This document shows, piece after piece, positions 13,719-41,569 of a stretch of DNA of 64,000 bases. Positions within the stretch are counted from its first letter, which is position 1, and every line of letters starts with the position of its first letter. The notes under the pieces are model-generated. The model had not been told where the DNA came from, made no database searches, and saw only the letters and a program-made list of their open reading frames with translations. Origin of the DNA: Escherichia phage RB3. Both the position numbers and the translations under genes were made by a program. Location of the stretch: the sequence record KM606994; one strand, given 5' to 3'.

Positions 13719-13722
13719 CAAT

Positions 13723-13752
13723 GGGGACCGAAAGGTCCCCATATTTTTATTT
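13723..13752 (+). terminator. intrinsic terminator after gene 54
   Basis: GGGGACC-GAAA-GGTCCCC followed by ATATTTTTATTT. Confidence 0.7.
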
Positions 13753-14037
13753 ACGGAATGAAATGAAAGCAGAAACTGAAGCAACTAAACTGTCTTCAAT
13801 ATAAACTTCAATTTTTACCGGAGCTTCTGACTCAAATTTACCTGTTACTACACTCTGAAAAATACTTTCAGACTGTTCTGGCTTTGAAAAATTTTCAGAA
13901 GGAAAAATTCCAAACTTTTTATCTGTTCCAAAAATTTTAATAAATTCATCGTAAACTGCTTCATTAAAAGCATTATCAGCAGGAATAACGCCTTCAACTA
14001 CAAGTTCTTGACCTAAAAAGCGCAAAGAAGATTTCAT
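13747..14037 (-). CDS. hypothetical early protein (T4 alt.-3 position)
   Basis: ORF track 96 aa; own early promoter and GAGGA SD upstream. Confidence 0.5.
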   Translation of the reverse strand: MKSSLRFLGQELVVEGVIPADNAFNEAVYDEFIKIFGTDKKFGIFPSENFSKPEQSESIFQSVVTGKFESEAPVKIEVYIEDSLVASVSAFISFRK

Positions 14038-14068
14038 TTTGTGTTCCTCATGTTATGTCAGTAAGTCT

Positions 14069-14098
14069 ACTATAACACAACACGAGGGACTTGTAAAC
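14069..14098 (-). promoter_or_regulatory. T4-type early promoter
   Basis: Minus strand GTTTAC-18 nt-TATAGT, then ACTTACTGACATAACATGAGGA leader. Confidence 0.6.
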
Positions 14099-16155
14099 TA
14101 CATTTTGAACTTTTTAGACATTCCGTTGATGTTAACCAAAGAAGCTAATATTTGAGAAACTTCGTTTTCCTCTTCTTTTGATTCTTCTACAAGGAATTGA
14201 TTAAATCCAGCCATTGGACGAACTTCACCAGTTTCCATTAAATGGTCTCCATCATATACTGATTCTTCTAATTGTTCAGAAGGAGGAACGATTGTACCTT
14301 CGATTAGATACTTGTTATAAGCAGTTTCTTTCATAAAGTACGTACTTACTTTATTAATCTTCAGTAAAATTCCGCGCGGTAGAATAACTTCAGCTTCTGA
14401 TGGAAATCCTGATAAATGACCTGGAACGATAACTTTGATTCGCTCAGCTCCTTTAATTACCATACCCACGCTAGTTTCAGCATCTTCATTAGCATATGTA
14501 GAATGACTACCCATATGCATCAAATCTTCTGCATCAACGGAACCTTCTCCTTCACCAGAAAATACTGCGCCGGAATCATCTAGAGCCATATAGTTTTTAC
14601 CATGCTCACCGAAGATATTTGGTTTAAGCGATGTGGATACGAAGTTCTTGAAATAGAACATTTTGTTTTCAATGTTATGACGCAAAGTTTTAAAGGTAAC
14701 TTCTTGTCCACGATAAAGCGTAGTTCCTGGAGGAAGAACTGAACCTTTAGCGAATGCAGAATCAAGCGTCTCAATATGTTTAATAGCTCGTTCCATATAT
14801 TCTTCACGGGTAGAATCTGGTTTACCCAAAAGGAACGAGTTCATTTCAACATATGAATCTGCACAATAATCTTCAATTACATCAGATTCAGCTTGAGTTA
14901 ATCCTTTTGGAGTTACTTCGGTGCTTGCGTATTCATATGCCTGGGCAGCAGATTCATTAATCAATTTATAAATGCCATTCATGACAAATTGAATAATAGC
15001 TGTCTTTTCATCTGGCGTAGCTTTAGAACCTTTAACTAAATCATTAATAATTTTCTTAATAACATCAAAGCTATTAGAAATATTAATGTCAGCAAGATCG
15101 CTTAAAATTTTATCAGTTTTATAATCAAAGAATTCTTTATTCTTTAAATATTCTTGAGAACCTTGATACGATATATCGCTCTGCAACTTGATAGATGGAT
15201 CACGTAAACGTGCATGGGCTAATGCAATATGATTTCGGAAACTTTCTAGTTCATAATCGTTAGATTTAAAACGAGAAGCACTTCTCATACCACCGATAGC
15301 TCCTTTGCCGAAGTTTGAACCAATCTGAATAACGCCAGAGTTCATTGGTCCTTCTGCTTTATATACCGGAACTTTAGATTCAAACTCTTGATATTTCTTG
15401 GCAGCGAAGCTATCACCCTGAAGTGAAGCATCGACAGTAGAATATTGAGCTTGTGCTGCTAATCGACGACTAATTTTAGTTTTTTGAATAACAGCTTGAT
15501 CCGTGCGCTTATCATTTTCTAAAGCAATAGAAGCAGCAACAGCGACAGCTTTAGGAACAGCATTACCTGTTTTAACATCTACATAAACATCACCGACCTT
15601 TGATTCAACTTTTGTGAATAACTCAGTTGAAATAGGAGGTACACCTGGAATGTCTTCTAAATTGGCATTTTTACGGTAAACCATAATATATGCATACTTT
15701 TTATCATAGTCCCAGATTTCCTTTAAAAGAACATATCGACCTGCTCCTTTAGTACGTACTAAACGGTCAGCAATAACTTGCATTTGACGAGCAGCGCCAT
15801 TTGTTTTACTTTTTAGTACGCGGAATAGGCATGCGTCAATTTTATACTGTTTCATTGTTTGAAGAGCAGTATCAAAAACAGCATTAATGACGCCAATTGG
15901 ATTTCCACCCAAGTTTCTAAGCTTAACCAGCGATAATTTCTCGTTGACACCTATCATTACGATATGCATCATTTTATCGCCTGGCTTAACGTTTTTATTC
16001 GTATCACCACCAGAGGTGTATGTACAAAATCTAAATCCAGGAAGCACGCTTTCTTCGCCGGCTTGAATAGCAAAAATTTGTGGTATTTTATGCTTAGGAT
16101 TTAAGTTAACAACCGGCGCCGAAGCGCCGTCAAATAATTCTGTAATAAGTTCCAT
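14098..16155 (-). CDS. Alt-family ADP-ribosyltransferase paralog (downstream copy)
   Basis: 685 aa; N-terminus MELITELFD and first ~400 aa clearly paralogous to the neighbouring alt; ART-type motifs YRGQ, FVSTS, SEAEV. Confidence 0.75.
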   Translation of the reverse strand: MELITELFDGASAPVVNLNPKHKIPQIFAIQAGEESVLPGFRFCTYTSGGDTNKNVKPGDKMMHIVMIGVNEKLSLVKLRNLGGNPIGVINAVFDTALQTMKQYKIDACLFRVLKSKTNGAARQMQVIADRLVRTKGAGRYVLLKEIWDYDKKYAYIMVYRKNANLEDIPGVPPISTELFTKVESKVGDVYVDVKTGNAVPKAVAVAASIALENDKRTDQAVIQKTKISRRLAAQAQYSTVDASLQGDSFAAKKYQEFESKVPVYKAEGPMNSGVIQIGSNFGKGAIGGMRSASRFKSNDYELESFRNHIALAHARLRDPSIKLQSDISYQGSQEYLKNKEFFDYKTDKILSDLADINISNSFDVIKKIINDLVKGSKATPDEKTAIIQFVMNGIYKLINESAAQAYEYASTEVTPKGLTQAESDVIEDYCADSYVEMNSFLLGKPDSTREEYMERAIKHIETLDSAFAKGSVLPPGTTLYRGQEVTFKTLRHNIENKMFYFKNFVSTSLKPNIFGEHGKNYMALDDSGAVFSGEGEGSVDAEDLMHMGSHSTYANEDAETSVGMVIKGAERIKVIVPGHLSGFPSEAEVILPRGILLKINKVSTYFMKETAYNKYLIEGTIVPPSEQLEESVYDGDHLMETGEVRPMAGFNQFLVEESKEEENEVSQILASLVNINGMSKKFKM

Positions 16156-16158
16156 GAT

Positions 16159-18255
16159 TTATCCTTGAACGAACTTGTAAGGCATGTTTGTAATATCTAT
16201 GCAAGACGCAATAATTCCAAGAGATGATTCTGCTTTCTGTTTAACGTTTGATGAAACAAATGATGCAAAGTCAACTCTGTCTTCTATTTCAATATCACCT
16301 GTCATTGCAACTACTTCACCGGTTTCCATTAAATGGTCTCCGTCATAGATTACCGATTCGGTGAGTTCTTCGGTGGTCATAACTTCAGCTTGAATGAGTT
16401 TTGTATTATTAGATGTTGTTCCGTCATTATTAGAAGCATCAGTTATTTTATTAACTTTGACCATCAATCCACGCGGTAGAATAACTTCAGCTTCTGTTGC
16501 TATTCCGAGACTTCCTGGATATACAACATTAACTTTATGAGCTCCATCAATTGCCCATCCTATTTGAACTTTAACGTATTCAGGATTTTCTTTATACGCT
16601 CTTATTTCGTTTGGATTAATAGTTATTCCTTCTTCATTTTTATCAACTGTTAATTCATTGCGAGCTTCTGGTTCTAAAAGACCAATACCAGCATGTGTAA
16701 TTCCAAAACGTCCAAAAATGATAGGAGTTAAAGAAGTAGATACAAAATTTCTGAAATAGAACACTTTATTTTTAACTAGTGCTTCGTATATAGGAGCAGT
16801 CATACTTTGAGCACGATAAACTGTAATGCCTTCTGGTATACGGTCACCATTTTCAAAAGCTGAATCTAAATTATTTATCGCAGATTCAATTTCTTTTTCA
16901 CTCATTACATCATATCGTTCTGGATTGTAGCGGCCTAAAAGAAGATTATTGATGTCAGTATATCCTGATCCACAATACTCTCTAATACCGCGCTTTTGCG
17001 ATGGAGTATATTTAGAACCATCACGGGCAATAGTAATATCAATCATTGGACCTGCACCAATTCCAGAAAAACTATAAATCATTCGTTTGAGGAATTTAGT
17101 TTTTGCTGAGTTCCAAGAATTTTTAGTTATTTCTTCCCAGACTTCATCTGGCTGCCCTTTACGAGTTTTATTATGTTTATCAAGCCAATTATCTTTATAT
17201 TCTTCAAAGAATTGATTAACAGCTGCTGCGTATTTCTCTAAACATTTTATTGAAGTAGTTGGTTCATTTTTAATCGCATTAAGAATTACATCTTTAATTT
17301 TTTCAGAAACTTCATTAACCTCACTTTTTGAAAAGAATTTATAGTCATAGTGAAGTTCATCTGCGGTTCCTTCGGCAATGATTTTTGCTGCCTTAGTTTT
17401 AGAAGCTAATGAATTAATTCCAAGCTTCATTTCTTCTGCTTCGGGAATTAAAGGAGCAGTAGCAGGTTTATTGAAATTAGCTGCGGTAGATTCATACTTC
17501 TGGAATAATTCACTTTCAAATCTAGAAGACTCTAACGATTGACTTTGTGCAATTGCTCTACGTGAAATTTTAACTTTAACGATTACAGCTTGGTCAGAAC
17601 GTTTATCATTTTCTTGCGCAATAGATGCTGCAATTGCCTCATTTTTAGTTACTTGGGCTCCAGTATCTTTATTGATATAAACATCACCGACCTTCGATTC
17701 AACTTTAGTAAAGAGCTCAGTACTAATTTCCGGAACTCCCGGAATGTCTTCTAGTGATACATTTTTGCGATGTATAAGAATATATGCATACTTTTTATCG
17801 TAATCCCAGAGTTCCTTAAGAAGGACGTATCTGCCACCTGAACGACTGCGGATGAGTCTATCAGCAATAAGTTGAATTTGTCGAGCTTGACCGGCGGTTT
17901 TAGACTTAAGAATACGAAGCATGCAGGCATCAATTTTATACTGACGCATTGTTTGCATTGCAACAGTAAAAACCGAATTGATATAATTAATTGGGCTTGG
18001 ACCAAGACCTTTCAATTTAGCAATTGAACCTTTAGCGGTTAATGTAAAAGGAACAATATGCATCATTTTATCGCCCATTTTTAAATCGCGATTAGTATCA
18101 CCTCCAGATGTATAGGTACATAAACGAAAGCCTGGTTGTTCAATTGCATCATCAACATGAACTGAAAAAATTTGCGGTATTTTCTTCTTTGGATTTAAGT
18201 TTGTAATCGGAAGAGTAGTATCTTCGTCAAATAATTCTGTAATAAGTTCCATCAT
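16159..18255 (-). CDS. alt: Alt ADP-ribosyltransferase, probably capsid-packaged
   Basis: 698 aa (start may be the second Met); motifs YRAQ, FVSTS, ATEAEV; late promoter ~20 nt upstream; next to DNA ligase as in T4. Confidence 0.8.
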   Translation of the reverse strand: MMELITELFDEDTTLPITNLNPKKKIPQIFSVHVDDAIEQPGFRLCTYTSGGDTNRDLKMGDKMMHIVPFTLTAKGSIAKLKGLGPSPINYINSVFTVAMQTMRQYKIDACMLRILKSKTAGQARQIQLIADRLIRSRSGGRYVLLKELWDYDKKYAYILIHRKNVSLEDIPGVPEISTELFTKVESKVGDVYINKDTGAQVTKNEAIAASIAQENDKRSDQAVIVKVKISRRAIAQSQSLESSRFESELFQKYESTAANFNKPATAPLIPEAEEMKLGINSLASKTKAAKIIAEGTADELHYDYKFFSKSEVNEVSEKIKDVILNAIKNEPTTSIKCLEKYAAAVNQFFEEYKDNWLDKHNKTRKGQPDEVWEEITKNSWNSAKTKFLKRMIYSFSGIGAGPMIDITIARDGSKYTPSQKRGIREYCGSGYTDINNLLLGRYNPERYDVMSEKEIESAINNLDSAFENGDRIPEGITVYRAQSMTAPIYEALVKNKVFYFRNFVSTSLTPIIFGRFGITHAGIGLLEPEARNELTVDKNEEGITINPNEIRAYKENPEYVKVQIGWAIDGAHKVNVVYPGSLGIATEAEVILPRGLMVKVNKITDASNNDGTTSNNTKLIQAEVMTTEELTESVIYDGDHLMETGEVVAMTGDIEIEDRVDFASFVSSNVKQKAESSLGIIASCIDITNMPYKFVQG

Positions 18256-18275
18256 AGCCTCTCTAGTGTTTATTC

Positions 18276-18283
18276 TATTTATA
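18276..18283 (-). promoter_or_regulatory. late promoter upstream of alt
   Basis: TATAAATA on minus strand ~20 nt upstream of alt start codon. Confidence 0.6.
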
Positions 18284-18285
18284 AA

Positions 18286-18306
18286 ATTAAAGGCCCGAAG
18301 GCCTTT
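18286..18306 (-). terminator. hairpin/terminator between the 62-aa ORF and alt late promoter
   Basis: AAAGGCC-UUCG-GGCCUUU on minus strand followed by T-rich tract. Confidence 0.5.
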
Positions 18307-18493
18307 AGTAATCTAGTGGTAAGAGAGTACGATATATTTCAAACTTCGGTCCTTTTTCATAGGCATCAAATGTTTCTGTAAATTTGTTATAAGCGTATGC
18401 ATCTACAAATTCGAGAATGACTTGTGATACAGAAGTAGAAACATCTCCACCTTCTTTTTGAGCAATGACAATTGTTTCTAAGTAAGCTTTCAT
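18305..18493 (-). CDS. hypothetical protein
   Basis: ORF track 62 aa between ligase and alt. Confidence 0.45.
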   Translation of the reverse strand: MKAYLETIVIAQKEGGDVSTSVSQVILEFVDAYAYNKFTETFDAYEKGPKFEIYRTLLPLDY

Positions 18494-19953
18494 AGACCAG
18501 TTACCTCATGAAAATCACCAAATACATCCTCGAATGTATTAGCTTTAGTTTTATCTTCACGTAAACGAATCGCAATCGGAAGAAATAATTTAACGTAATC
18601 AGTGCGGCCATCAGATTTTAACCAACCGTTGCATTCGCACTCTAGAATTTTTCCAATATAATAATTTTGGTTTTCCATAATGCGAGTACGGTCAAGTTCA
18701 TGCGATTTTACACCGGCTTTATCTTTTAAGCCTGAACCAGCATTTACTTTAATTTTTCCACACTCTGACTCAAGAATAAATCCACCTGCTTTAGTAGGGT
18801 CTTTACGGTGAGGATAAATTCCTACAATTTTTAAATCAACATCAATTACTTCTTTAAATTTATAGAGATTTTTTGAACGAGCATTTTCCCATAATCCATC
18901 GATATTTTTGAGAATAATACCTTCAAGACCTTGGTCAATATACTTTTTATAAATTACCTTAGCTTCATCTAAGTTATTTACTACTTGGTTTTCAATTAAA
19001 ATTACTTTATCATATCCTGATGTCATTTGTTCTAGTTTAGAAAAACGTACATCATATTTCAAACGAAATGCAGGAAGACCGTATATTTCTACCAACGGTA
19101 CATAATCCCAGACCTGAAACTTCATGCACTGTGCTTCTTTTTCAGAAATGGTTCCCTTTAAAGATTTATTGGCGATGCCATTAGATGCAGTACGTGATTC
19201 AGCTACTTCGGCGAATTCTTTAGCTTTACTAATTTCAGGATAAGCATCAAAAAGAAAATCTAGGCCTTCTGGCTCCTTTTTAACTTGCTCATGGTATACC
19301 AATTCGCCATCAATTAACACACCTTCTGGATGAATCTGGCGGGCTTCAGCGGTCATTTTGATTAACTCTTCCTTAAGAAGATCTAATCCTAGATATTCAT
19401 TACCAGCTCGTGATAAAAGACGAACATCATCTAATTCATCACCTCTAACTTCAGCAAAACACCGAGCTCCATCAGCTTTTAACTGGGCAAAAGCTGGAAA
19501 TTTGATATTCTTATTAATGCCTTTTTCATCATAAGAACTTGCAAGCATTTGAGGTTGTTCAGGAATTAAACCTGGCCAAACTTTGTTTGCAATAGATACC
19601 GAAGCACCGCATTCAAGGTCTCGCATCATCACCCGACGCAAAACTTCAACATCATCTTTTTTACCGTCAGTAATATATCCAGTTAATTCCTCAATTGCCG
19701 CATTTCCAGTCAATTTCCGAGTAGCTAACGTGAATTCAATGAAGTCAAGCATATCGGTAAGAGTCAACATTCCAAAACTCTGGGTAGCAATACCAGGTTT
19801 AGGCCATTTCTTGATATAATACTGTAACCCACGAGAATAAGTCAGACGATATACCCGTTTAAGCAATTCATTATCTTTATTCTTTTCAAGAATTGCTTGC
19901 TTCTGCTTAGTTGAACCAATAGATGCTATTTCGTTCAGAATTTTAAGAATCAT
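18490..19953 (-). CDS. 30: ATP-dependent DNA ligase gp30
   Basis: 487 aa, equal to T4 ligase; adenylation motif KADGAR. Confidence 0.9.
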   Translation of the reverse strand: MILKILNEIASIGSTKQKQAILEKNKDNELLKRVYRLTYSRGLQYYIKKWPKPGIATQSFGMLTLTDMLDFIEFTLATRKLTGNAAIEELTGYITDGKKDDVEVLRRVMMRDLECGASVSIANKVWPGLIPEQPQMLASSYDEKGINKNIKFPAFAQLKADGARCFAEVRGDELDDVRLLSRAGNEYLGLDLLKEELIKMTAEARQIHPEGVLIDGELVYHEQVKKEPEGLDFLFDAYPEISKAKEFAEVAESRTASNGIANKSLKGTISEKEAQCMKFQVWDYVPLVEIYGLPAFRLKYDVRFSKLEQMTSGYDKVILIENQVVNNLDEAKVIYKKYIDQGLEGIILKNIDGLWENARSKNLYKFKEVIDVDLKIVGIYPHRKDPTKAGGFILESECGKIKVNAGSGLKDKAGVKSHELDRTRIMENQNYYIGKILECECNGWLKSDGRTDYVKLFLPIAIRLREDKTKANTFEDVFGDFHEVTGL

Positions 19954-20219
19954 TGTTCATCCTTTAGAGTTTGGTTTACAGCTCTATTATAAATCAATTC
20001 ATCATTAAGCTCAGTCAAAGACCTGTGGTACGTGGTTCTAACTTTATTTCCTTGCATCCAGTGCTTGACGTAAATGAAACCTTGCTCTACACATTTTTTA
20101 AAAATTCGTTCGTCTTTTTGAGCTCGGAATTCTGGATTGCATCTAAAAAATTGATTTACGTGACCGTAATCACGTGTAGTATTACCTTCATTTTCATAAA
20201 TAGTATGAACAACAAACAT
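19950..20219 (-). CDS. hypothetical protein (30.1 position)
   Basis: ORF track 89 aa; ATGA-type overlap with ligase. Confidence 0.5.
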   Translation of the reverse strand: MFVVHTIYENEGNTTRDYGHVNQFFRCNPEFRAQKDERIFKKCVEQGFIYVKHWMQGNKVRTTYHRSLTELNDELIYNRAVNQTLKDEQ

Positions 20220-21058
20220 TAGAATGCTCCTTGGAAAATATTATCACCACTAGTAGGTCTATTATACAAATACCCTATGCCGCCAGGTTTAATATAGTTC
20301 CATGTCTGAAACGGATGTGTCTGATATGGATGATATAGATGATTATAAGGATTAAACCCAGGAGTTCTCCAGGTAGTGTTCCAAGGAAAAGAATCGTTTT
20401 TGATCATCTTCTCAATTACATCTTTTATAACTTTTTCACTATCAAAACTTTCTTTATTTTCCTTCGATGGAAAAAGCTTATTCTCTACATCATTCCATGT
20501 ATAAACTCGCTGTGCAGTTTTTGGAATACTGTCACGCTCCCCTCGAACCATCCAATAAACAGGAACATTTAATATTTCACTCGCGTGATCGCAATGGTGA
20601 GCGAGATCGTCAATATAACAAATTACGTTATATTTCTCTTTTGCCTTTTTGAACAACTCTTCTTTTGAAGAATCATGACTACACATCAGTACTTCTGAGA
20701 AGGCACCAGGAAAAAGAGCATTCAAATTAAATTGACGATTCAGCAGAGCGTCAATAGAATCACCCAATGCTGTAACAGCTACAAAATTATAATCTTCTTT
20801 TAATTTGTTAATTACACACAGGGCATCTTTATATGGAGACAAGTAACGAATAAAATCTGAACGATTGTATTTTTCAATTAACTTGACGCCAAGTTCTTCA
20901 TCACAATTAAAGAGTTTACCAGGAGAAATAAATTTCTCATCTTGGATCATTTTTAAAATATGTTCTAACGGAAGATTATATTTCTGAGCAAAATAAGGAA
21001 GGCCTGATTGCCAGCTTAAACATACTCCATCAATATCAGTTAAAATAGTAGGCTTCAT
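20219..21058 (-). CDS. HAD-superfamily hydrolase, 5'(3')-deoxyribonucleotidase-like (30.2 position)
   Basis: 279 aa; N-terminal DIDGV motif typical of HAD motif I. Confidence 0.55.
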   Translation of the reverse strand: MKPTILTDIDGVCLSWQSGLPYFAQKYNLPLEHILKMIQDEKFISPGKLFNCDEELGVKLIEKYNRSDFIRYLSPYKDALCVINKLKEDYNFVAVTALGDSIDALLNRQFNLNALFPGAFSEVLMCSHDSSKEELFKKAKEKYNVICYIDDLAHHCDHASEILNVPVYWMVRGERDSIPKTAQRVYTWNDVENKLFPSKENKESFDSEKVIKDVIEKMIKNDSFPWNTTWRTPGFNPYNHLYHPYQTHPFQTWNYIKPGGIGYLYNRPTSGDNIFQGAF

Positions 21059-21519
21059 AGAGAGTCTCTTAATAGGTTTAACACATCAATAAATTCAGCT
21101 TCAGTTAGTATTGTATCATCTTTTGTTAGACCACTAGCCATGCTGTGCTTCAAAACTTTTCCTTTCGAGGCTTGTAATGCATCACGAAAGCCCTTGTTTT
21201 GGATCGCTGCTTCAAAATATGCATTTGTATACAGCTCTTTCCACGCCGGGGAGTATCTTGAAAACGGAACTCCAATCCAGAAGAGGGTCCCACGGTCCTG
21301 AGCTCTAGCATAAGACCTTCCAGCTTGTTGGGCGGCAAGCCCGGATAACCCAAATATACGACGTTGTTGTTCAACATTTTTCACCTTGCATCCTTGGAGG
21401 AATCCTTCAAGACCTCCAAATTGAATACCATCCATAACGAAAGGCCATTGGGCGAAATTACTTAATGCACATGATGGCCACCTAAAATTGTTTCTAATCT
21501 CTAACTCAGACATTTTCAA
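21055..21519 (-). CDS. NADAR / YbiA-like (DUF1768) family protein (30.3 position)
   Basis: 154 aa; ALSNFAQWPF...DG...FGGLEGFLQGCK resembles the YbiA signature DFSNFAAWPI...DG...SEHYFQAQK. Confidence 0.55.
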   Translation of the reverse strand: MKMSELEIRNNFRWPSCALSNFAQWPFVMDGIQFGGLEGFLQGCKVKNVEQQRRIFGLSGLAAQQAGRSYARAQDRGTLFWIGVPFSRYSPAWKELYTNAYFEAAIQNKGFRDALQASKGKVLKHSMASGLTKDDTILTEAEFIDVLNLLRDSL

Positions 21520-21712
21520 TGCTTATAATTTCAACATCAGCCCAATGACCATAGCAAGGAAGACGAAATTCAACTGGCCAGTTAGGGTCCTTTTCTAATA
21601 TAATAGACTTAACTTGTGGTTCTTCATGTTCATCAGTATATGGATTTTTATCTGTTACTTTATATGTGACCTTAATGTACTGAATTCCAAAAATCTTATT
21701 AATTATATTCAT
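21506..21712 (-). CDS. hypothetical protein
   Basis: ORF track 68 aa in the 30.x early cluster. Confidence 0.45.
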   Translation of the reverse strand: MNIINKIFGIQYIKVTYKVTDKNPYTDEHEEPQVKSIILEKDPNWPVEFRLPCYGHWADVEIISIENV

Positions 21713-21906
21713 ACTAGTTCCTTTAATCCGTAAATAGGAGATAATTCATCACCCATACGAAGGTCTTCATTTCCATCTACCCAGGAAACAATATAAGCCT
21801 CTTTTATTTGAACACCACTCCATTTAAATGGAGGTAGAACCTTAGAAATTAATCCAGGTATACCAACTCCCTTTAATTCAACAGTTTGACCTAAAAAGAA
21901 TTTCAT
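21709..21906 (-). CDS. hypothetical protein
   Basis: ORF track 65 aa, ATG start. Confidence 0.45.
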   Translation of the reverse strand: MKFFLGQTVELKGVGIPGLISKVLPPFKWSGVQIKEAYIVSWVDGNEDLRMGDELSPIYGLKELV

Positions 21907-22193
21907 TAGAACCTCATCTGAAAACCGTGCGATTTAACATTACCGCCACCAATATCAGAGATATTAATTTCGCGCGCAATTGAAGGGTCAATGTCAATTT
22001 CGCGATTGAGTTTAGTGATAGCTAAAGTATCGCGCCCATTTACAGTACGAAACTCTAAAGGACAAACCACATCAACATAGTTTTTAATCGATTCGCTAGT
22101 AGGTTGCAAATGTGCAGGAAGGTCTTTAGGCGCCTTTGAGAAAACTACTTCGCAGAAGTTTTTACGGGTATCAAAATAAGTAGTCATAAACAT
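21906..22193 (-). CDS. hypothetical protein
   Basis: ORF track start is TTG upstream of an intercistronic hairpin; first ATG (Met18) used. Confidence 0.4.
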   Translation of the reverse strand: MFMTTYFDTRKNFCEVVFSKAPKDLPAHLQPTSESIKNYVDVVCPLEFRTVNGRDTLAITKLNREIDIDPSIAREINISDIGGGNVKSHGFQMRF

Positions 22194-22233
22194 AACATTT
22201 TCCTCAGTAAGGGGCCAAAGCCCCTCATTTATT

Positions 22234-22599
22234 TTAAATATCAAATTCGTTAAGAACTACATCAAAGATTGCTTCAAGATGCTCAGGTTTAGCTCTGTTA
22301 CTCAGAATATGACGAATCCAAGTTTTAACCAAAAGCTTGCGATTAGCACCATTCCAGCAAGGATGAGTCCCTAAATCACGTTGACGAAAATCATCATCCA
22401 GAGCGATTTTGAAGTTTGAACCTTCCATTGTGATTGAAACCGTGATGCCATTTTCAAATCGCATATAAACGTAGTTAGGAGTCATATACTGTTCAATTTC
22501 GCATACTGATCCATTTTGATGTTTCCAAAGGCAGATGGTATCAATAGAACCTGCAATACCATTAGAAACATATTTACGTTCAAAGTTGATGTAGTTCAT
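22234..22599 (-). CDS. hypothetical protein
   Basis: ORF track start is TTG; ATG at Met5 with GGAG SD and an early promoter upstream. Confidence 0.5.
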   Translation of the reverse strand: MNYINFERKYVSNGIAGSIDTICLWKHQNGSVCEIEQYMTPNYVYMRFENGITVSITMEGSNFKIALDDDFRQRDLGTHPCWNGANRKLLVKTWIRHILSNRAKPEHLEAIFDVVLNEFDI

Positions 22600-22635
22600 T
22601 TTATTCTCCAAGATGTTTAATTGCGGTACAGGTAT

Positions 22636-22664
22636 ATAATATCATATCCTGCACCAAAGTAAAC
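22636..22664 (-). promoter_or_regulatory. T4-type early promoter
   Basis: GTTTAC-17 nt-TATTAT on minus strand. Confidence 0.55.
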
Positions 22665-22666
22665 AA

Positions 22667-22999
22667 TTATTTTACTACTTTCCAATGCTGCATGTCAAGT
22701 TTACCAACTTTTTTCATCTTCTCAATTAAGCGTTCGGCACGTTGGCGAGCTGTAACATAATACCATTCACCTAATTCATTTTGTTCAATTTTTCCAACGA
22801 TTACTGTATTTAATTCATAAATCCAACCAGTAAAGAAATTATGAACTTGAATTGTAAAGGTGAAATCTGTTCCCATACCTTCTGTTGTTTCTACTTCAAT
22901 AATATCACCTTCAACTGCCATTAAGAACCACATAGTTTCATCATATTTACCATTGAAGCATTTAGTTTTAACTGCAGCGTTCAGATTAATCGTTTTCAT
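22667..22999 (-). CDS. hypothetical protein
   Basis: ORF track 110 aa; early promoter and AAGGAG SD upstream. Confidence 0.5.
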   Translation of the reverse strand: MKTINLNAAVKTKCFNGKYDETMWFLMAVEGDIIEVETTEGMGTDFTFTIQVHNFFTGWIYELNTVIVGKIEQNELGEWYYVTARQRAERLIEKMKKVGKLDMQHWKVVK

Positions 23000-23036
23000 T
23001 TTATTCTCCTTTGTTTGTGTAAGATAATACTATCAC

Positions 23037-23066
23037 AAAGGAGCTATACTGTAAACAACTTTATGC
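23037..23066 (-). promoter_or_regulatory. T4-type early promoter
   Basis: GTTTAC-18 nt-TAGTAT on minus strand, then AAGGAG SD. Confidence 0.55.
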
Positions 23067-23085
23067 AATCTTTGGAAAATAAAAA

Positions 23086-23114
23086 AGGACTCCCGAAGGA
23101 GTCCTCAACTTATG
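23086..23114 (-). terminator. intrinsic terminator downstream of the small basic protein gene
   Basis: GGACUCC-UUCG-GGAGUCC followed by TTTTTTATTTT on minus strand. Confidence 0.7.
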
Positions 23115-23286
23115 CTTTCTGCTTACCAAAACGAGAAGCATCATCTCGAAGAACCGCACGCGCTCGGCGCATGATCTTCTCAACAGTTTGATTGATACGA
23201 GAGTTCGACCCACGCTTGTAGCCAGCGCGTTTAGAATCACCAACTTTCTTTTCAACTGCTTTCTTTGCTTTAACTTGTTTTGCCAT
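23110..23286 (-). CDS. small highly basic protein (possibly nucleic-acid binding)
   Basis: MAKQVKAKKAVEKKVGDSKRAGYKRG..., 58 aa from the internal ATG; terminator immediately downstream; start uncertain (track start 23328). Confidence 0.4.
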   Translation of the reverse strand: MAKQVKAKKAVEKKVGDSKRAGYKRGSNSRINQTVEKIMRRARAVLRDDASRFGKQKA

Positions 23287-23531
23287 TATAAATTCTCTTT
23301 TAAATGAAAATGCAGGACTTATTGGCATTGCCTGCGCAAGCCCTCAAGGGGAACATAGGTTTTTGGATATTTAACGACCAGGATAACCATAAACCCGTCA
23401 TCATTCACATTCAAGAGGTACACCGTAAAACTGCCGAGGTCTTAAAACTATAATGATTCGCAAATCATTAATCAGACAGTTCGACGGCTCCTCGATTTTA
23501 GCTCACACTAAGGTAGTGAATCTCCAATAAA

Positions 23532-23780
23532 TTACTTCAATGTTACCACAAAGTGACGAACTGCTTTTCGTGCAGCAGAAGCCAGAGGCTTAGCATATTT
23601 AAGTTCATCTTTTTCCTGAAGCTCAGCAGCTAATGCAGTTTGAGCAGGATTCAGATGTTTGAAATAACGCAGGATTTCAAGAGCTTCGGCTTCAACATCA
23701 ATAGATGCGCCATAGTTTTCGTGACCATTATTCCATGCGTTTCGTTGCAGTTCAAGAGCGTGTTGTAATTGTTTAATCAT
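23532..23780 (-). CDS. rIII: rIII lysis inhibition accessory protein
   Basis: 82 aa, equal to T4 RIII; position between 31 and the 30.x cluster. Confidence 0.7.
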   Translation of the reverse strand: MIKQLQHALELQRNAWNNGHENYGASIDVEAEALEILRYFKHLNPAQTALAAELQEKDELKYAKPLASAARKAVRHFVVTLK

Positions 23781-23927
23781 TTAAAAATTCTCGTTAGAGA
23801 TTAAAACTCGGTAGTCACGTTCTTCTGAATTTCATCTTCTTTCGACAGATCTCTCAGTTGTAGACTACCACATAGAATTGTTCGGTTAACTTATTATTCC
23901 GACACCCAATTCATATTATTATTTATA

Positions 23928-24263
23928 TCACTTATAAAGACATGGAATAGCTTTATAGTGGCAAGTGACGAATTTTTGTTTAATTTCTTTTGGCTGCTTA
24001 AGACCCAGAGCTACAAAAGGATGCGGAACGTTTCGAATTTGACCAACTGGAAGAGAAGTCAAATCACCAACTTCGCAGAAACCTTCAGGAACATCAGGAC
24101 CAACAGAGTGAACTACACACAGTTCAGGAACTTCACCTTGAACACGTTTACCGATAATAAGTCCTGATTCTGTAACTTCTTCATCACCAGCTTGTGCAGG
24201 TTCAGAAACTAAAATAACATATTCACCGACAGCACGAATTGGTAGCTGTTGTACTTCAGACAT
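23928..24263 (-). CDS. 31: gp31 co-chaperonin (GroES analogue)
   Basis: 111 aa, equal to T4 gp31; MotA-type middle promoter upstream. Confidence 0.9.
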
Positions 24264-24293
24264 CGTTTTTCCTTTTTGTTAACAGATGAATTA

Positions 24294-24320
24294 ATAATAA
24301 CAAATAATTCTTAAAGCATT
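24294..24320 (-). promoter_or_regulatory. MotA-dependent middle promoter of gene 31
   Basis: Minus strand AATGCTTTA (MotA box), 12 nt, TATTAT. Confidence 0.55.
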
Positions 24321-24628
24321 TATTTACCAATAAATTGGAGTAAATGCTCAACTTTCATACCATTAACAGAAATCAATTTGTCAATAGAAAAACCTCGCCA
24401 TGCACCAAGCTCAACATCAAATACTGGAATCATGTCAGTAGATTCTTTCCGAGTAGATTCAGTCAATTTGCCAGTTTGCATGGTTGGCATAAAGTCTGCA
24501 TCACGAGTACCTTTCATAACACGAATAGTACCATCAGACTTTTCAAAAACTACGTTTGAAACACCCATGGACAATTTAGTTTTCAAAATTTCGCGAATTG
24601 CTACTTTTTGTTCAGTCGTCAGTTTCAT
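24320..24628 (-). CDS. hypothetical protein (31.1 position)
   Basis: ORF track 102 aa. Confidence 0.5.
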   Translation of the reverse strand: MKLTTEQKVAIREILKTKLSMGVSNVVFEKSDGTIRVMKGTRDADFMPTMQTGKLTESTRKESTDMIPVFDVELGAWRGFSIDKLISVNGMKVEHLLQFIGK

Positions 24629-24865
24629 TTATTTACCTATTACAGTTTTAATATGAGTTGTTCCACGTTCTTTAAGGGTGGAAAGTAATTTTTGGCATTT
24701 TTCTAAATCAGATTTCCAACTATACGGTCTATCAATACTAGTCCAATCAGTTTTATAATACTGTTTCCATTTAGAGAAAAAATATTTCTTATACTCTACA
24801 GCAAATGAGATGTTCTCGTTAGAATAAGAACTAATTGCTGTGAGCTTTACCAAACGAAATTTCAT
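24629..24865 (-). CDS. hypothetical protein (31.2 position)
   Basis: ORF track 78 aa. Confidence 0.5.
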   Translation of the reverse strand: MKFRLVKLTAISSYSNENISFAVEYKKYFFSKWKQYYKTDWTSIDRPYSWKSDLEKCQKLLSTLKERGTTHIKTVIGK

Positions 24866-25446
24866 TATTCACCACAGAATTCGTTGATATTTTCCCAGTT
24901 TAACTTATTCAAGTTTTTCTTAGGAACATTAAACACTTCAATACCTGCATTTCGCAGAATATCATCCCAACCAGGTTTATTTTTGTCGTATGTTTCGCAA
25001 TAAACCAGTTTTTTAATTCCAGATTGAGCTATCGCTTTTGCGCAATCCGGACATGGAGAAAGTGTTACATACATAGTAGCACCTTCAATAGAAGAACCAT
25101 TTCGTGCAGCAAACAAAATTGCATTTAGTTCAGCATGAATTTCATTTTTAGATGACCATTCCGAGTGAGCACTACGGTGTTCTTTCGCCAAAACAAAACG
25201 ATCAGTTGAACCAAATGATACGCATTCAGGCTTATGACCTTGAATGATAGTATGTTTAGGCTTATTCAACAACCAACCTCGCTCAGCAGCATAATCACAA
25301 CAGTTCACACCTCCTGCGGGTGAACCATTATACCCAGTAGAAATAATACGTCCATTCTTTTCAATTACTGCTCCTACCTTCCAGGAGCAACATTTTGATT
25401 CCTGTGATACTAAATATGCAATTTGAAGTACTGTACTCGCTTTCAT
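24865..25446 (-). CDS. cd: dCMP deaminase
   Basis: 193 aa; zinc-binding HAELNA and PCPDCA motifs. Confidence 0.9.
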   Translation of the reverse strand: MKASTVLQIAYLVSQESKCCSWKVGAVIEKNGRIISTGYNGSPAGGVNCCDYAAERGWLLNKPKHTIIQGHKPECVSFGSTDRFVLAKEHRSAHSEWSSKNEIHAELNAILFAARNGSSIEGATMYVTLSPCPDCAKAIAQSGIKKLVYCETYDKNKPGWDDILRNAGIEVFNVPKKNLNKLNWENINEFCGE

Positions 25447-25781
25447 TTCATAATCACCAGATAAGCAGATTTAGCAGTTTCAACACGATAAATTTCGTGA
25501 CGAAGTTTAGTTATACTTTTAATAACAGAACTAATTATATTCTGCCCATCTTTAAAGCGGTTTTTCTTATCAATAAAAACTGCGCCAGTCATCTTTTTGT
25601 GAAGCTCAACTGGATACTTCGTCACAATAATCGCATCATACACAGAAGGATGAATACTATTCACCAGAGTATCATTCATTAAAGTTATTCTAATGAACTG
25701 TGCTGTTTCAGAATCAAGCGCTCTATGATCGCCAGTATCATTTTCAAGACAATTATCAATTATATCAGTTAAATTCATCAT
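25443..25781 (-). CDS. hypothetical protein
   Basis: ORF track 112 aa. Confidence 0.5.
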   Translation of the reverse strand: MMNLTDIIDNCLENDTGDHRALDSETAQFIRITLMNDTLVNSIHPSVYDAIIVTKYPVELHKKMTGAVFIDKKNRFKDGQNIISSVIKSITKLRHEIYRVETAKSAYLVIMK

Positions 25782-26014
25782 AGTACGCCATACACCCTTT
25801 GTGCTTCAACTAATCCATCAAAATCCAGTTTAAGATGCGATATTTGATCGCCATCACCTGGATTCACAATTACTAATACTGAACGAGGAGTTTCGGTAAT
25901 AACACGAACCGATGTTTCAGGAAATCGTTCAGAAACCTTATTTACTAATTCCTGTGCAAATAGTTTAACTTTTTCTTGGAATTCTTTAACAGTAATTGGT
26001 TTTTCACTTAGCAT
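25778..26014 (-). CDS. hypothetical protein
   Basis: ORF track 78 aa. Confidence 0.5.
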   Translation of the reverse strand: MLSEKPITVKEFQEKVKLFAQELVNKVSERFPETSVRVITETPRSVLVIVNPGDGDQISHLKLDFDGLVEAQRVYGVL

Positions 26015-26535
26015 GTTGATCCCAGCTCCTTACTTTCAACGTTTTTAACTAATTTGACAGAAACTAATTCAGCATCTTGGGTAATCATTACCGGACCTTC
26101 TTCATACTCTTCAAGATATTCTAGAGCTTTCTTTTTAGCTTCTTCCTTCGTATCAGTTTGAGCATAGATATAGAACATACAACCAGTAATACCTACTACT
26201 TTCCACTTAATTTCTTTATCAGTTTTAATTTCAAATTTACTTACAGAATCATCTTTTTGAACTTCTTCGAAAAAAGAATATTCTAACATATAAGCAATTG
26301 AAAATAACGGGCTAACTTTATAGGATTCACCCATTACATCAACAGCTTTATACCAGCAGTCATCAATTTCGCGTTTAATGCTAATAACATTTTTCGCAGG
26401 ATCTATTTTTACTTTAAATGAATTTTCCCCAATAAACTGGGCAATTCGTTTATTAGCCCCGCAAGTTTCATTAAAAATATCTTTATATCCAGCTTTAAAG
26501 CGATAAACCTTATCTTCTTCAAACCATTCGCTCAT
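26008..26535 (-). CDS. hypothetical protein
   Basis: ORF track 175 aa; early promoter plus GAGGAAATTGAA-ATG upstream. Confidence 0.5.
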   Translation of the reverse strand: MSEWFEEDKVYRFKAGYKDIFNETCGANKRIAQFIGENSFKVKIDPAKNVISIKREIDDCWYKAVDVMGESYKVSPLFSIAYMLEYSFFEEVQKDDSVSKFEIKTDKEIKWKVVGITGCMFYIYAQTDTKEEAKKKALEYLEEYEEGPVMITQDAELVSVKLVKNVESKELGSTC

Positions 26536-26565
26536 TTCAATTTCCTCATTTGTTTTGGTAGAGCT

Positions 26566-26595
26566 ATAATATCACAACTCTACCGTAAAGTAAAC
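26566..26595 (-). promoter_or_regulatory. T4-type early promoter
   Basis: GTTTAC-18 nt-TATTAT on minus strand. Confidence 0.55.
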
Positions 26596-26597
26596 CA

Positions 26598-26873
26598 TTA
26601 AATCGCTTTGAATTCCGCAGTTTGAGATTCAAAACGAATGTCGCCTTTGATAACTAGCTCAGCATCAAGACCAAATACGACAATGATATGCGCGGAACCT
26701 GGATACAACGTGATGGCAACAGAATCCACCTGGTCTGGAAGCAAAGTATTCAATACATGAGTTACTTGAGCGTGGATTCGAAGCTCAGCTGCATTATCAA
26801 GTTTTTCAAACATATTATTAGCTATAATTTGGCTAAACACTACTTCTACGATTTTAGAGTAAGTCGGAAACAT
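26598..26873 (-). CDS. hypothetical protein
   Basis: ORF track 91 aa. Confidence 0.5.
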   Translation of the reverse strand: MFPTYSKIVEVVFSQIIANNMFEKLDNAAELRIHAQVTHVLNTLLPDQVDSVAITLYPGSAHIIVVFGLDAELVIKGDIRFESQTAEFKAI

Positions 26874-26937
26874 ATTTACCTCACATAATTTTCTTCAAGC
26901 CAATTAATAATATCCCAAGTTTCATGGTGCAAAGCCA

Positions 26938-28141
<1,204 letters not shown>

Positions 28142-28145
<4 letters not shown>

Positions 28146-28378
28146 TTATTTTTCTCAACCAATGATTGAATATAATCATGCAGGTCTTTAGATGCTTTAC
28201 CCCACTTATTTTGATATTCATTTTTGAGATTAGCACGTGATTGAGCTAATAAAACATCATTAGTTGGAGGTAAAGATTCTAATCGTTGAATCTGGCGACC
28301 ATAAATCATTGCAGCCATCTCGGATTCATAAATCAATTCTTTGAGATGTTCAAATTGATGCCATGAAATCATTTGCAT
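28142..28378 (-). CDS. hypothetical protein
   Basis: ORF track 78 aa. Confidence 0.45.
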
Positions 28379-28668
28379 TTATCCTCTTTTAGCTCTTGAC
28401 GATAATAACATATCATAGTTTTTTGGTCATGTACATATCGTTTTACATCATTAAGCCAAATACGAAATTCCTGGGAATCTTCAAATGGCATACCGACCCA
28501 AGCTTTACCATCAATAACTTTAACTTTCCAAGATAGTTTAGCTTCATCATATGACTTTATTTGCACAGGCCAATTAGGATGAACTGTTTCTTTCTTTACT
28601 TCTAGAGGCTTTGTCGAACAACCAACTAGAAGACCAATAGATAATATTACTGCTGATAGTTTAATCAT
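28369..28668 (-). CDS. outer-membrane lipoprotein, o-spanin candidate
   Basis: 99 aa; signal peptide with lipobox LVGC; follows and overlaps the i-spanin candidate. Confidence 0.6.
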   Translation of the reverse strand: MIKLSAVILSIGLLVGCSTKPLEVKKETVHPNWPVQIKSYDEAKLSWKVKVIDGKAWVGMPFEDSQEFRIWLNDVKRYVHDQKTMICYYRQELKEDKCK

Positions 28669-29018
28669 TTAGAAAGGTCCTGGATGTCTTCTGCGAACTT
28701 GTTGAAGGAGTTGTTGATTTGTTTTTCAACCAATCCTGGCTTATGAGCCACCACATCCGCCTTCTTTGCATCTTTGCGCAGTTTTTCATTTTCACGCTCA
28801 ATAGCAGCAATTGCCTCACGATTTTTATTATTCATCGCATCAATATAATTATACTGAATTCGCAAATTATTTAATGCTAAAGCGTTTTCATTGGCCGTTT
28901 TTGTAATTTCAGTAACTGATGTTTCTAATCTTTCTACCTTATTTTTTAAAATAATAGATGTTCCGCCAAATGCTATTACAAGTAATAGCAATCCAGCTGT
29001 AAAATTACTTACATGCAT
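28665..29018 (-). CDS. inner-membrane spanin subunit (i-spanin) candidate
   Basis: 117 aa; one N-terminal TM segment then charged coiled-coil periplasmic domain. Confidence 0.6.
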   Translation of the reverse strand: MHVSNFTAGLLLLVIAFGGTSIILKNKVERLETSVTEITKTANENALALNNLRIQYNYIDAMNNKNREAIAAIERENEKLRKDAKKADVVAHKPGLVEKQINNSFNKFAEDIQDLSK

Positions 29019-29515
29019 AAAGTTTTAATAACCTCTATAATATCGTCTTGAGAAAGACCGTTAATTAAAATATGATGTTCAGCTGGAGATTTAGAAATTT
29101 TAAAGCATGCCTCAACATCTTCTGCCATATCCGATGCACTACGATTTGGATTACTAATACCAAGGCGGTGTTTTCCCGTCAAAGGATTAACGATGATATA
29201 GCATTTGCAGTTATTGATATGAACATTGGGTTGAGTCTGATTAATGAACACTTCACAATCATACTTAGCGAGTTGATTTTCTAAAAAGACTTTCATCTCT
29301 TCAACCGCATCAGGAAGCATATCACGGGCTTGCTCAAGACGACGATTTCGATATTCTTTAATGGTCGTTTTCCGCTTGACTTGCTTAGCTAAATCTTTCT
29401 TAAGATCAGTGATATATCCAACTCGACGATTTCCTTTGAATACAGAAATCCCATCTGTAGTATCACCGTATGCTTCAACGACCATTTCAGTAGTAATAAG
29501 TTGTAAATCCATCAT
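29009..29515 (-). CDS. alc: Alc transcription terminator (host transcription shutoff)
   Basis: 168/167 aa; early promoter plus GAGGA SD upstream; between pseT cluster and rnlA as in T4. Confidence 0.8.
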   Translation of the reverse strand: MMDLQLITTEMVVEAYGDTTDGISVFKGNRRVGYITDLKKDLAKQVKRKTTIKEYRNRRLEQARDMLPDAVEEMKVFLENQLAKYDCEVFINQTQPNVHINNCKCYIIVNPLTGKHRLGISNPNRSASDMAEDVEACFKISKSPAEHHILINGLSQDDIIEVIKTLCM

Positions 29516-29543
29516 AAAGTCCTCATGTTATGTCAGTAAGACT

Positions 29544-29573
29544 ACTGTAACACAACACGAGGGACTTGTAAAC
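29544..29573 (-). promoter_or_regulatory. T4-type early promoter of alc
   Basis: GTTTAC-18 nt-TACAGT on minus strand; same ~55-bp cassette as at 14046-14100. Confidence 0.6.
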
Positions 29574-29576
29574 AGC

Positions 29577-31164
<1,588 letters not shown>

Positions 31165-40486: not shown

Positions 40487-40729
40487 TCAGACGGACTTTT
40501 TCACAATTTTCCAATCGGCTTTAAACTGTTCAACGTCAGAGTGGTAAATCCAGAATCCTGCGCTTTCTCCATCTTCATAAAGAGGACATCCATCGCATTC
40601 ATCTTCCCATCCCATATCACGCAAAAGACGTTCAGCTTTTTCAACAAGTTCAGAATCTTTACCGATGATATTAAAATACCATTTACCTCTAACTTCTGAA
40701 TCTTTGATGCTCTGGCGTTGTAATCTCAT
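40487..40729 (-). CDS. hypothetical protein
   Basis: ORF track 80 aa; early promoter and AAGGAG SD upstream. Confidence 0.5.
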   Translation of the reverse strand: MRLQRQSIKDSEVRGKWYFNIIGKDSELVEKAERLLRDMGWEDECDGCPLYEDGESAGFWIYHSDVEQFKADWKIVKKSV

Positions 40730-40754
40730 TTTATTCTCCTTAGTTGATAGGGTA

Positions 40755-41548: not shown

Positions 41549-41569
41549 ATTAATTAGTAATATAATCTA

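Follow-up and report, generated by a model that had tools for sequence, protein, structure and literature searches.

Introduction

Why should two early promoters of a T4-like phage, set 15.5 kb apart in front of two different genes, be nearly identical over a length that promoter function does not require? The question is raised by a 64,000-nucleotide (nt) stretch of Escherichia phage RB3 (sequence record KM606994), hereafter the window, in whose numbering all positions are given. The window is identical to the sequences of the Tequatrovirus phages RB5, RB6, RB7, RB9 and RB10, and appears as RB5 in the comparisons below (window position 1 being position 104395 of RB5 KM606995.1). On its minus strand, the intergenic regions in front of alt.-3 and alc contain two copies of one cassette, which a first-pass annotation made from the sequence alone had described as a repeat of about 55 bp with an early promoter, suggesting that it might additionally act as a recombination substrate or provide a shared regulatory leader.

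Here we report that each copy folds into a hairpin whose arms are the promoter spacer with the -10 box and the leader with the Shine-Dalgarno (SD) sequence, and that hairpins of this kind appear to recur upstream of alc in other genera. We give slightly better than even chances to the reading that the cassette is an SD-sequestering hairpin with an early promoter inside it, which was copied from alc to alt.-3 and whose copies have been kept alike by constraint and gene conversion. The hairpin formed no part of the first-pass annotation, and neither did the covariation at alc in other genera nor the lack of deletions between the copies.

Results

The repeat and its two loci

The two copies, called A and B (Table 1), are 54 nt long and differ by 2 mismatches (96% identity), with a chance expectation for such a repeat of 0.00 matches (100 dinucleotide-preserving shuffles). 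A third copy is absent from the window at up to 3 mismatches, and a BLAST search with the cassette returned 995 places in 498 Tequatrovirus records, T4 included, or about 2 per genome. The annotated repeat is therefore real, and both its sequence and its variable positions (T/A and A/G) had been given correctly, while its limits had been placed 1 nt too high at the start and 2-3 nt too high at the end; the gene coordinates also confirm alt.-3 and alc as the genes downstream. The stretch of identity opens with the upstream gene's stop codon (alt.-2 or rnlA) and closes just 3' of the SD, thereby taking up the whole intergenic space: in copy A the TAG of alt.-2 shares the first G of the -35 element GTTTAC, and in copy B the TAA of rnlA lies 3 nt 5' of it. 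The annotated start of alc is the second ATG. We rejected the idea that Alt.-3 and Alc are paralogues, given that BLASTP yields no alignment and that their N-terminal likeness (E-L/M-V-V-E) is a matter of chance.

The full-length alt.-2 of RB5 (685 residues) is shared by most relatives, and T4 and two IMG/VR contigs keep small alt.-1/alt.-2 remnants; on its right-hand side, the deletion ends 19 nt upstream of the -35 of copy A (window 14099-14120, minus strand, compared with positions 5095-5176 of T4 locus L002). The PeSL cassettes discussed below are located in hyperplastic regions beside indels or ORFans; copy A adjoins this deletion polymorphism and copy B lies between the conserved rnlA and alc.

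An early-promoter consensus in each copy

Both copies show GTTTAC, 18 nt and TA(T/C)AGT on the minus strand, followed by GAGGA and the start codon, an arrangement equivalent to TTTACA and TATAGT separated by 17 nt, with a TG extended -10. The consensus scan found TTTACA-17-TATAGT in copy A (10/12 matches) and TTTACA-17-TACAGT in copy B (9/12), with the TG present in both; in T4 the -10 is TATAGT at both loci. The T4 early-promoter motif as published is TGTG(A/G)TA(C/T)(A/T)AT, and the layout of these promoters has been given as UP, -35 GTTTAC, TGn and -10 (Hinton 2010, PMC2988021). Both copies resemble them in GTTTAC, in the 17-nt spacer counted from TTTACA, in TGn, in TAnnnT and in a predicted +1 A, so that the earlier assignment as early promoters appears sound. 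The sequence where an UP element would lie (about -40 to -55) is coding at both loci, A-rich 5' of copy A (CTAAAAAGTTCAAAATGTA) and not 5' of copy B (CCCAGAAGGATACTAAGCT). Counting 7 nt from the end of the -10 box, we infer a +1 at an A at about cassette position 37, between the two arms of the hairpin described next.

A hairpin that pairs the promoter spacer with the Shine-Dalgarno sequence

The identity had been said to extend beyond the needs of a promoter, and this is borne out: it does so because spacer and leader form the two arms of one 18-bp hairpin. In RB5 and in T4, both copies share this long stem (-23 to -29 kcal/mol over about 80 nt, z -3.8 to -4.6; for copy B, -28.6 kcal/mol and z -4.33), and none of 200 dinucleotide shuffles folded as well as the cassette. 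Cassette positions 12-25 pair with 40-53, and 28-31 with 36-39 around a 4-nt loop. The 5' arm consists of the promoter spacer (CCCUCGUGUUGUGUU) and the -10 box, and the 3' arm of the leader (CUGACAUAACAU) and the SD GAGG. The proposal of a shared regulatory leader gains support here, the leader common to both loci being, as far as the sequence tells, the SD-containing 3' arm.

As the -10 hexamer lies inside the 5' arm, an RNA started at the cassette promoter cannot carry that arm. Partition-function calculations predict a probability of the SD being unpaired of 0.001-0.003 for an RNA starting 120 nt upstream, and of 0.12-0.50 for one starting at the predicted +1. For I-TevIII, used as a control from the same window, SD accessibility is 0.25 in the read-through RNA and 0.75 in that from its own promoter. 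The start region of I-TevIII, in the nrdB intron (32640-32695, minus strand), has the late promoter TATAAATA within a hairpin and the SD in the 3' arm, and its start codon is apparently TTG. This late-promoter motif is absent from both cassettes, and no Rfam family matches either of them, even at E up to 1.

Conservation and covariation upstream of alc

We compared the rnlA-alc junction in 12 T4-like lineages, whose Alc proteins are 45-60% identical to that of RB5. The same 60-66-nt layout (GTTTACA, anti-SD arm, TGTG-TAnnAT, about 7 nt, a 3' arm ending in the SD, ATG) is found in Karam-, Dhaka- (two species), Gelderland-, Roskilde-, Winkler- and Kanagawavirus (CIP9) and in a Klebsiella phage, with stem arms that vary by lineage (for example UCUCCAUUUGGUU/AACCAAAUGGAGA, UCCUCAUCAG/CUGAUGAGGA and UCCUCAUUUCGUU/AACGAAAUGAGGA). 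In an alignment-free test, the best partner of the spacer was its own leader in 9 of the 12 lineages; the mean spacer-leader energy was -17.2 kcal/mol for own pairs and -10.7 kcal/mol for cross pairs, and 0 of 100,000 permutations reached the own mean. A gapless MAFFT alignment of four genera, made with no structural input, has 96.2% of its cells paired, against 33-54% with slid partners; both sides change in 4 of 13 pairs (0-1 when slid), and none of 500 shuffles reached the covariation score. In about 9 of the 12 lineages the SD lies inside the stem and its partners covary. At the alc of 8 of the 11 other lineages, the predicted probability of an unpaired SD is at most 0.001 in the read-through RNA and 0.4-0.9 in the RNA from the own promoter.

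These comparisons indicate that at least 9 T4-like lineages have a spacer-SD hairpin upstream of alc, its stem differing between them and covarying. Since the architecture covaries across genera whose Alc proteins are only 45-60% identical, we take the structure of the hairpin itself to be under selection.

Two other approaches were set aside. MAFFT followed by RNAalifold on 13 alc cassettes returned no structure, because the 3' arms are out of register in that alignment; we take this as misalignment and not as counter-evidence, and the alignment-free permutation test and the gapless four-genus alignment were used in its place. A covariance model (R1) aligned the other genera well and was not used for pair counts, given its inconsistent Tequatrovirus rows and reverse-strand echoes.

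Further variation was seen at alc itself. In VR26 (Gaprivervirus), a 77-residue open reading frame (ORF) annotated as similar to T4 Alc lies between rnlA and the full alc (locus L022, 88-404) and looks like a partial tandem duplication of alc; it has a terminator hairpin 5' of it and an SD-pairing stem of its own (GGUUCCAUCA/UGAUGAGGACC). In phages UPEC01 and TH57, the tblastn match to Alc falls in two pieces over about 742 nt, annotated as two alc coding sequences, which suggests an insertion or duplication within alc.

Probable origin of the second copy and possible exchange between the copies

In representatives of Mosig-, Dhaka-, Gelderland- and Karamvirus, the spacer of the alt.-3 promoter is unrelated, forms a small hairpin within itself and lacks an anti-SD stretch, and the alc cassette of IME08 can be aligned with that of T4 over its length. 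It follows that the whole-cassette copy at alt.-3 is specific to Tequatrovirus and that alc is the likelier donor, which makes alc to alt.-3 the likelier direction of copying. Elsewhere, the alt.-3 leader of IME08 is identical over 32 nt to the alc leader of VR5, which may reflect partial exchanges or a strong leader consensus in other genera too. The annotated start of IME08 alt.-3 (36200) lies inside the early promoter of the gene itself (locus L004, 36172-36240), and the true start is likely the ATG about 36 nt downstream, after GAGGAGAACATT. A second alc cassette in Karamvirus was considered and rejected, the "2 places per record" being palindromic arms that match themselves on the other strand.

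We read both copies in 14 Tequatrovirus genomes, IMG/VR giving only 5-6 relevant contigs. Orthologous copies differ by 2.1 (alc) and 3.5 (alt.-3) substitutions per 54 nt, compared with 0.6-1.3 per 60 nt in the coding flanks, so that the cassette varies 2-4 times more than its surroundings. Nevertheless, the two loci have the same consensus with no fixed difference, and the cross-locus distance between genomes (3.0) is about equal to the distance within a locus. Of the 8 variant alleles at alc, 7 are also present at alt.-3 (16A, 19C, 27C, 32A, 33A, 40T and 44C, two of them transversions); the probability of such sharing is 1e-7 with all substitutions equal, 1.5e-4 for transitions alone, 3e-3 for transversions alone and 1.5e-3 for variable sites only. 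The rare stem-breaking allele C19 occurs in phage UGKSEcP2 only, and there in both copies. Among the alleles that preserve a pair is the stepwise series from C15-G50 through U.G to U-A.

The shared alleles suggest occasional gene conversion between the copies, and to this extent they favour the earlier idea of a recombination substrate. Crossover products or deletions between the copies, which had been proposed as something to look for in relatives, were seen neither in the 14 genomes nor in the copy counts of the 498 records. The essential genes 30 and 31 are located between the two copies, and as both would be lost, such a deletion is unlikely to be viable.

Strand asymmetry, termination and read-through

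With its three G.U pairs, the Tequatrovirus cassette folds 6-9 kcal/mol more stably as the mRNA strand than as the antisense strand, a bias that is also present in the other hairpin promoters of the window. Given that three G.U pairs become C.A mismatches on the other strand, the folding energies favour a role at the RNA level in Tequatrovirus, which for the other genera is only assumed; as a general test of RNA against DNA, strand asymmetry was dropped, since it works for Tequatrovirus only.

A terminator scan of positions 13000-31000 called 12 terminator-like sites, none of them at either cassette. A U-tract is absent 3' of the alt.-3 stem (GAGGAACACAAAAUG), and there is only CUUUAU 3' of the alc stem. 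No terminator was called between the late promoter of alt and copy A. Alt is packaged into phage heads and must hence be made late; with a late promoter in front of alt, transcription of alt and alt.-2 late in infection is expected to continue into alt.-3. On the upstream side of copy B, the strand is free of called terminators from rnlA as far back as position 31000 at least, and the only exact late promoter there is that of I-TevIII at 32675. At both loci, an early gene directly follows genes transcribed later, with no room for a terminator.

Other early promoters of the same design

We compared the 11 early promoters of the window that have a promoter-proximal gene (Table 1). Own spacer-leader complementarity exceeds cross complementarity in RB5 (4/11, P < 2e-4) and IME08 (2/9, P = 0.001), and marginally in Melville (2/8, P = 0.06); no such excess was found in NHEP10 (0/8) or among four Karamvirus promoters, two of which pair strongly (P = 0.74). 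At the 30.8 promoter (window 23002-23056, minus strand; T4 locus L002 12257-12311), the spacer pairs with the SD (CUCCUUUGU/ACAAAGGAG in RB5), and a covariance model picks up its counterparts, whose stems differ, at loci of Gelderland-, Dhaka- and Mosigvirus, so that 30.8 is by sequence a second conserved example of an SD-pairing promoter. On the same grounds, early promoters with a spacer-SD hairpin appear to be a recurrent minority class.

It is possible, though we lean against it, that the hairpin-embedded early promoter is a general T-even-type design, by which early proteins would be translated only from mRNAs of their own promoters. If so, early-promoter shut-off would end the synthesis of such proteins at once despite middle and late read-through, and would contribute, at a post-transcriptional level, to the abrupt fall in early protein synthesis, for which there is as yet no explanation.

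Several further observations concern these promoters. The hairpins of 30.7, RB5_212 and frd.1 (22597-22664, 26533-26595 and 40727-40784, minus strand) are not explained by SD sequestration. The spacer of the early promoter at 61619-61679 (minus strand) forms a 15-bp stem (z -5.6) with the SD of an unannotated 37-residue ORF (about 61510-61621, minus strand) between ndd.2a and ndd.5, the position of ndd.3/ndd.4 in T4; that region is cited in the PeSL papers as shuffled between T4 and PST (PMC2839356, PMC4122927). A weak Rfam match at 23071-23154 (minus strand) to the Rhizobiales small RNA Atu_C8 (31.4 bits, gathering threshold 50, E = 0.0066) overlaps a terminator-like hairpin (23085-23106, minus strand) and is probably due to chance. 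The repeat family D2 (41459-41556, 58502-58599 and 62128-62225, copies 62-77% alike) has on the minus strand, in at least the first two copies, a G+C-rich terminator hairpin, an A/T-rich stretch and a GTTTAC early promoter, the terminator-then-promoter order described for the PeSLs of PST and T4.

Table 1. Positions of the cassettes, their parts, the surrounding genes and signals, and the early promoters compared
Feature	Position	Strand	Remarks
Cassette copy A	14045-14098	minus	Entire alt.-2/alt.-3 intergenic region; 54-nt repeat
Copy A -35 GTTTAC	14093-14098	minus	Consensus scan; TTTACA at 14092-14097
Copy A 5' arm	14068-14087	minus	Cassette positions 12-31; anti-SD CCCUC, remainder of spacer, -10 box; minimum free energy and centroid folds
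Copy A -10 TATAGT	14069-14074	minus	Consensus scan; preceded by TGT (extended -10)
Copy A 3' arm	14046-14063	minus	Cassette positions 36-53; leader including SD GAGG (14046-14049)
Copy A predicted +1 (A)	14062	minus	Placed at 7th nt after -10 box
Cassette copy B	29520-29573	minus	rnlA/alc intergenic region; 54-nt repeat
Copy B -35 GTTTAC	29568-29573	minus	Consensus scan
Copy B 5' arm	29543-29562	minus	Helix lengthened: AAGUCC pairs with GGACUU 3' of the SD
Copy B -10 TACAGT	29544-29549	minus	Consensus scan; TG extended -10
Copy B 3' arm	29521-29538	minus	Leader including SD GAGG (29521-29524)
Copy B predicted +1 (A)	29537	minus	Placed at 7th nt after -10 box
alt.-3	13747-14037	minus	96-residue protein, function unassigned; served by copy A
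alc	29009-29512	minus	Inhibitor of host transcription; served by copy B
alt.-2	14098-16155	minus	Full-length Alt paralogue, 685 residues; transcripts read into copy A
rnlA (gene 63)	29577-30701	minus	Transcripts read into copy B; no terminator called between
Terminator-like hairpin after alt.-3	13721-13742	minus	Terminator scan; bidirectional, common to gene 54
Late-promoter motif TATAAATA	18276-18283	minus	Motif scan; just upstream of alt; likely source of late read-through into copy A
Early promoters, SD paired to spacer	alc; alt.-3; 30.8 (23056); unannotated 37-residue ORF (61679)		z -3.4 to -5.6
Early promoters, hairpin around -10 box, SD free	30.7 (22664); RB5_212 (26595); frd.1 (40784)		z -3.4 to -4.2
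Early promoters, no significant structure	including motA, rnh		z about 0
Counterparts of the 30.8 promoter	L005 27351-27416; L004 27238-27305; L003 26929-26996		Covariance model

Discussion

In the mechanism that we propose, the module would combine a sigma-70 early promoter of T4 type with an RNA hairpin in which it is embedded. Transcription from this promoter would start between the arms and give an mRNA that carries the 3' arm alone, with an open ribosome-binding site, whereas a transcript started upstream would carry both arms, form the 18-bp stem and hide the SD. Such read-through would enter alc from rnlA and the genes before it, and alt.-3 from the late-transcribed alt and alt.-2, and Alc and Alt.-3 would be made only while their own early promoters fire. 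The design would be old at alc, and the whole module would have been copied to alt.-3 in the ancestor of Tequatrovirus, most likely through ectopic recombination from alc, the copies being kept alike since then by constraint and occasional gene conversion.

T4 is a textbook example of timed gene expression. If the proposed mechanism holds, synthesis of Alc-type proteins would be confined to the first minutes of infection despite continued transcription from upstream, possibly explaining the sharp stop in the synthesis of some early proteins. The model would also account for a conserved promoter spacer and for 54 nt kept near-identical at two loci in about 500 genomes. The pair of copies would be a natural case of a regulatory repeat of about 54 bp homogenised by gene conversion in a highly recombinogenic phage. 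Additionally, such modules can be recognised during annotation and would help to place start codons (that of IME08 alt.-3, for instance, is annotated upstream of the gene's own promoter).

A number of observations weigh against this interpretation. Spacer and SD do not pair at the Mosigvirus alc, and the hairpins of Tegunavirus and Kanagawavirus KLB31, which enclose the -10 box, stop 2-5 nt before the SD. For RB5 alt.-3, the predicted accessibility of the SD in the RNA from its own promoter is only 0.12. Stems outside Tequatrovirus are almost purely Watson-Crick, which renders the strand test uninformative there, and in Gelderlandvirus it is the antisense strand that is favoured. Within Tequatrovirus, 5 stem alleles keep their pair and 5 break it, which is not significant, and 10 of the 28 copies in the 14 genomes have at least one broken pair. 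As regards gene conversion, mutational hot spots or parallel selection could account for part of the shared polymorphism, and two of the 14 "genomes" combine copies taken from different metagenomic contigs.

The cassette could instead be an ordinary PeSL, that is, a transcriptional attenuator or terminator which also offers homology for recombination, with an incidental pairing of the SD. Its composition fits the 2010 description of PeSLs, including a stem-loop over the -10 and G-T pairs, a PeSL stem-loop equalled rrnB T1 in a termination reporter (PMC2839356), and PeSL copies recombine, which would go with the polymorphisms that the cassette copies share. We consider this unlikely, given the missing U-tract at alt.-3, with only CUUUAU at alc, and a terminator scan that calls neither cassette; moreover, a terminator has no need of an SD in the 3' arm, and in most of the lineages compared the stem includes the SD, with covarying partners. 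The same property speaks against a processing or stability element (for example a site of nuclease attack, or a stem that protects the 3' end of the upstream mRNA once it has been cleaved) in place of a translational gate: a long, near-perfect stem of about 18-22 pairs at a gene boundary would suit such an element, as would the three other early promoters of the window whose -10 hairpins lack the SD, but it leaves the choice of the SD as pairing partner unexplained, and we find it very improbable. That the inverted repeat acts as DNA, through a cruciform or a protein-binding dyad that modulates the promoter (for instance in early-promoter shut-off, which is described as not understood), is a proposal to which we would give hardly any credence. 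The absence of strand asymmetry in the stems outside Tequatrovirus is what it would predict; on the other hand, the C.A mismatches that the Tequatrovirus stem would have on the other strand disfavour it, and the arm sequences differ among genera and promoters, which argues against a sequence-specific protein.

The hairpin could also serve translational coupling: on read-through RNA the SD would become accessible only if a ribosome finishing at the stop of the upstream gene, 0-7 nt ahead of the -35, melts the base of the stem, and Alc would be made in step with RnlA. In most lineages the stop codon abuts or overlaps GTTTAC and the anti-SD stretch begins at position 8, which, from the size of the ribosome footprint, is within the reach of a terminating ribosome. 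In Tequatrovirus, however, the anti-SD stretch begins at position 12 and the rnlA stop lies 3 nt further upstream, so that at most one SD pair would be opened, and tight gene packing alone explains the short distance from stop to promoter; coupling is accordingly improbable in our judgement. Finally, the extended identity could be functionless: the cassette would have been duplicated at the base of the genus, and a short divergence time with some gene conversion would have kept the copies similar. Conservation of the cassette indeed does not exceed that of its coding flanks (2.1-3.5 differences per 54 nt versus 0.6-1.3 per 60 nt), but neutrality does not account for an alc architecture maintained by covariation across genera with such divergent Alc proteins, and we regard it as quite improbable. 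On this balance, we retain the SD-sequestering early promoter as our working model.

Comparison with known systems

The early promoters typical of the window (families D1 and D2) are 60-77% alike over 66-98 nt, compared with 96% for the cassette pair, and their spacers are free to vary, whereas that of the cassette would be constrained by pairing. The closest structural family is that of the PeSLs and the closest functional family that of the T4 e/soc/49/I-TevI switches. PeSL cassettes comprise an upstream stop codon, an early promoter, a stem-loop mostly between or over the -35 and -10, G-T pairs, an SD and an ATG (PMC2839356, PMC4122927); their copies have been shown to recombine, and they have been proposed as substrates of homologous recombination (Arbiol et al. 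2010, PMC2839356; Comeau et al. 2014, PMC4122927). One of their stem-loops terminated as strongly as rrnB T1 in the reporter (PMC2839356), and both papers interpret the stem-loop as terminating or attenuating transcription and count the SD as a distinct 3' element; neither discusses translation, and the 2010 text nowhere uses that word (PMC2839356, PMC4122927). Both cassettes share with them the upstream stop, the early promoter, the overlapping stable stem-loop, the 3' SD and start codon and, judging from the shared alleles (7/8, with C19 in both copies), recombination between copies. They differ in that the 3' arm is formed by leader and SD with no terminator U-tract, in that they lie between conserved genes 15.5 kb apart instead of flanking ORFans, and in that the exchange would be gene conversion and not mini-circle excision.

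In T4 e, soc, 49 and I-TevI (with I-TevII, I-TevIII, mobE and segB also cited), a hairpin masks the site of ribosome binding and includes an internal promoter (Uzan and Miller 2010, PMC3014915): the long transcript hides the SD or AUG, and a promoter in the 5' part gives a short, translated RNA (PMC3014915). A structure of this type, its 5' part containing a late promoter, has been predicted for the start region of I-TevIII (PMC3014915), and alc and alt.-3 are not among the genes listed in that review (PMC3014915). We found no description of an SD-sequestering early-promoter hairpin at alc or alt.-3 in the literature searched, older print work lying outside the search, so that priority is uncertain. 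The cassette resembles these switches in an SD that is predicted to be paired in upstream-started RNA (probability unpaired 0.001-0.003) and in a promoter whose -10 lies within the 5' arm, the short RNA, from its presumed start, lacking that arm. It differs in that the known internal promoters are late (TATAAATA), whereas that of the cassette is an early sigma-70 promoter; the known switches turn the translation of late genes on, and the early version would do the opposite, limiting translation to the early period and denying it to read-through RNA of middle or late times.

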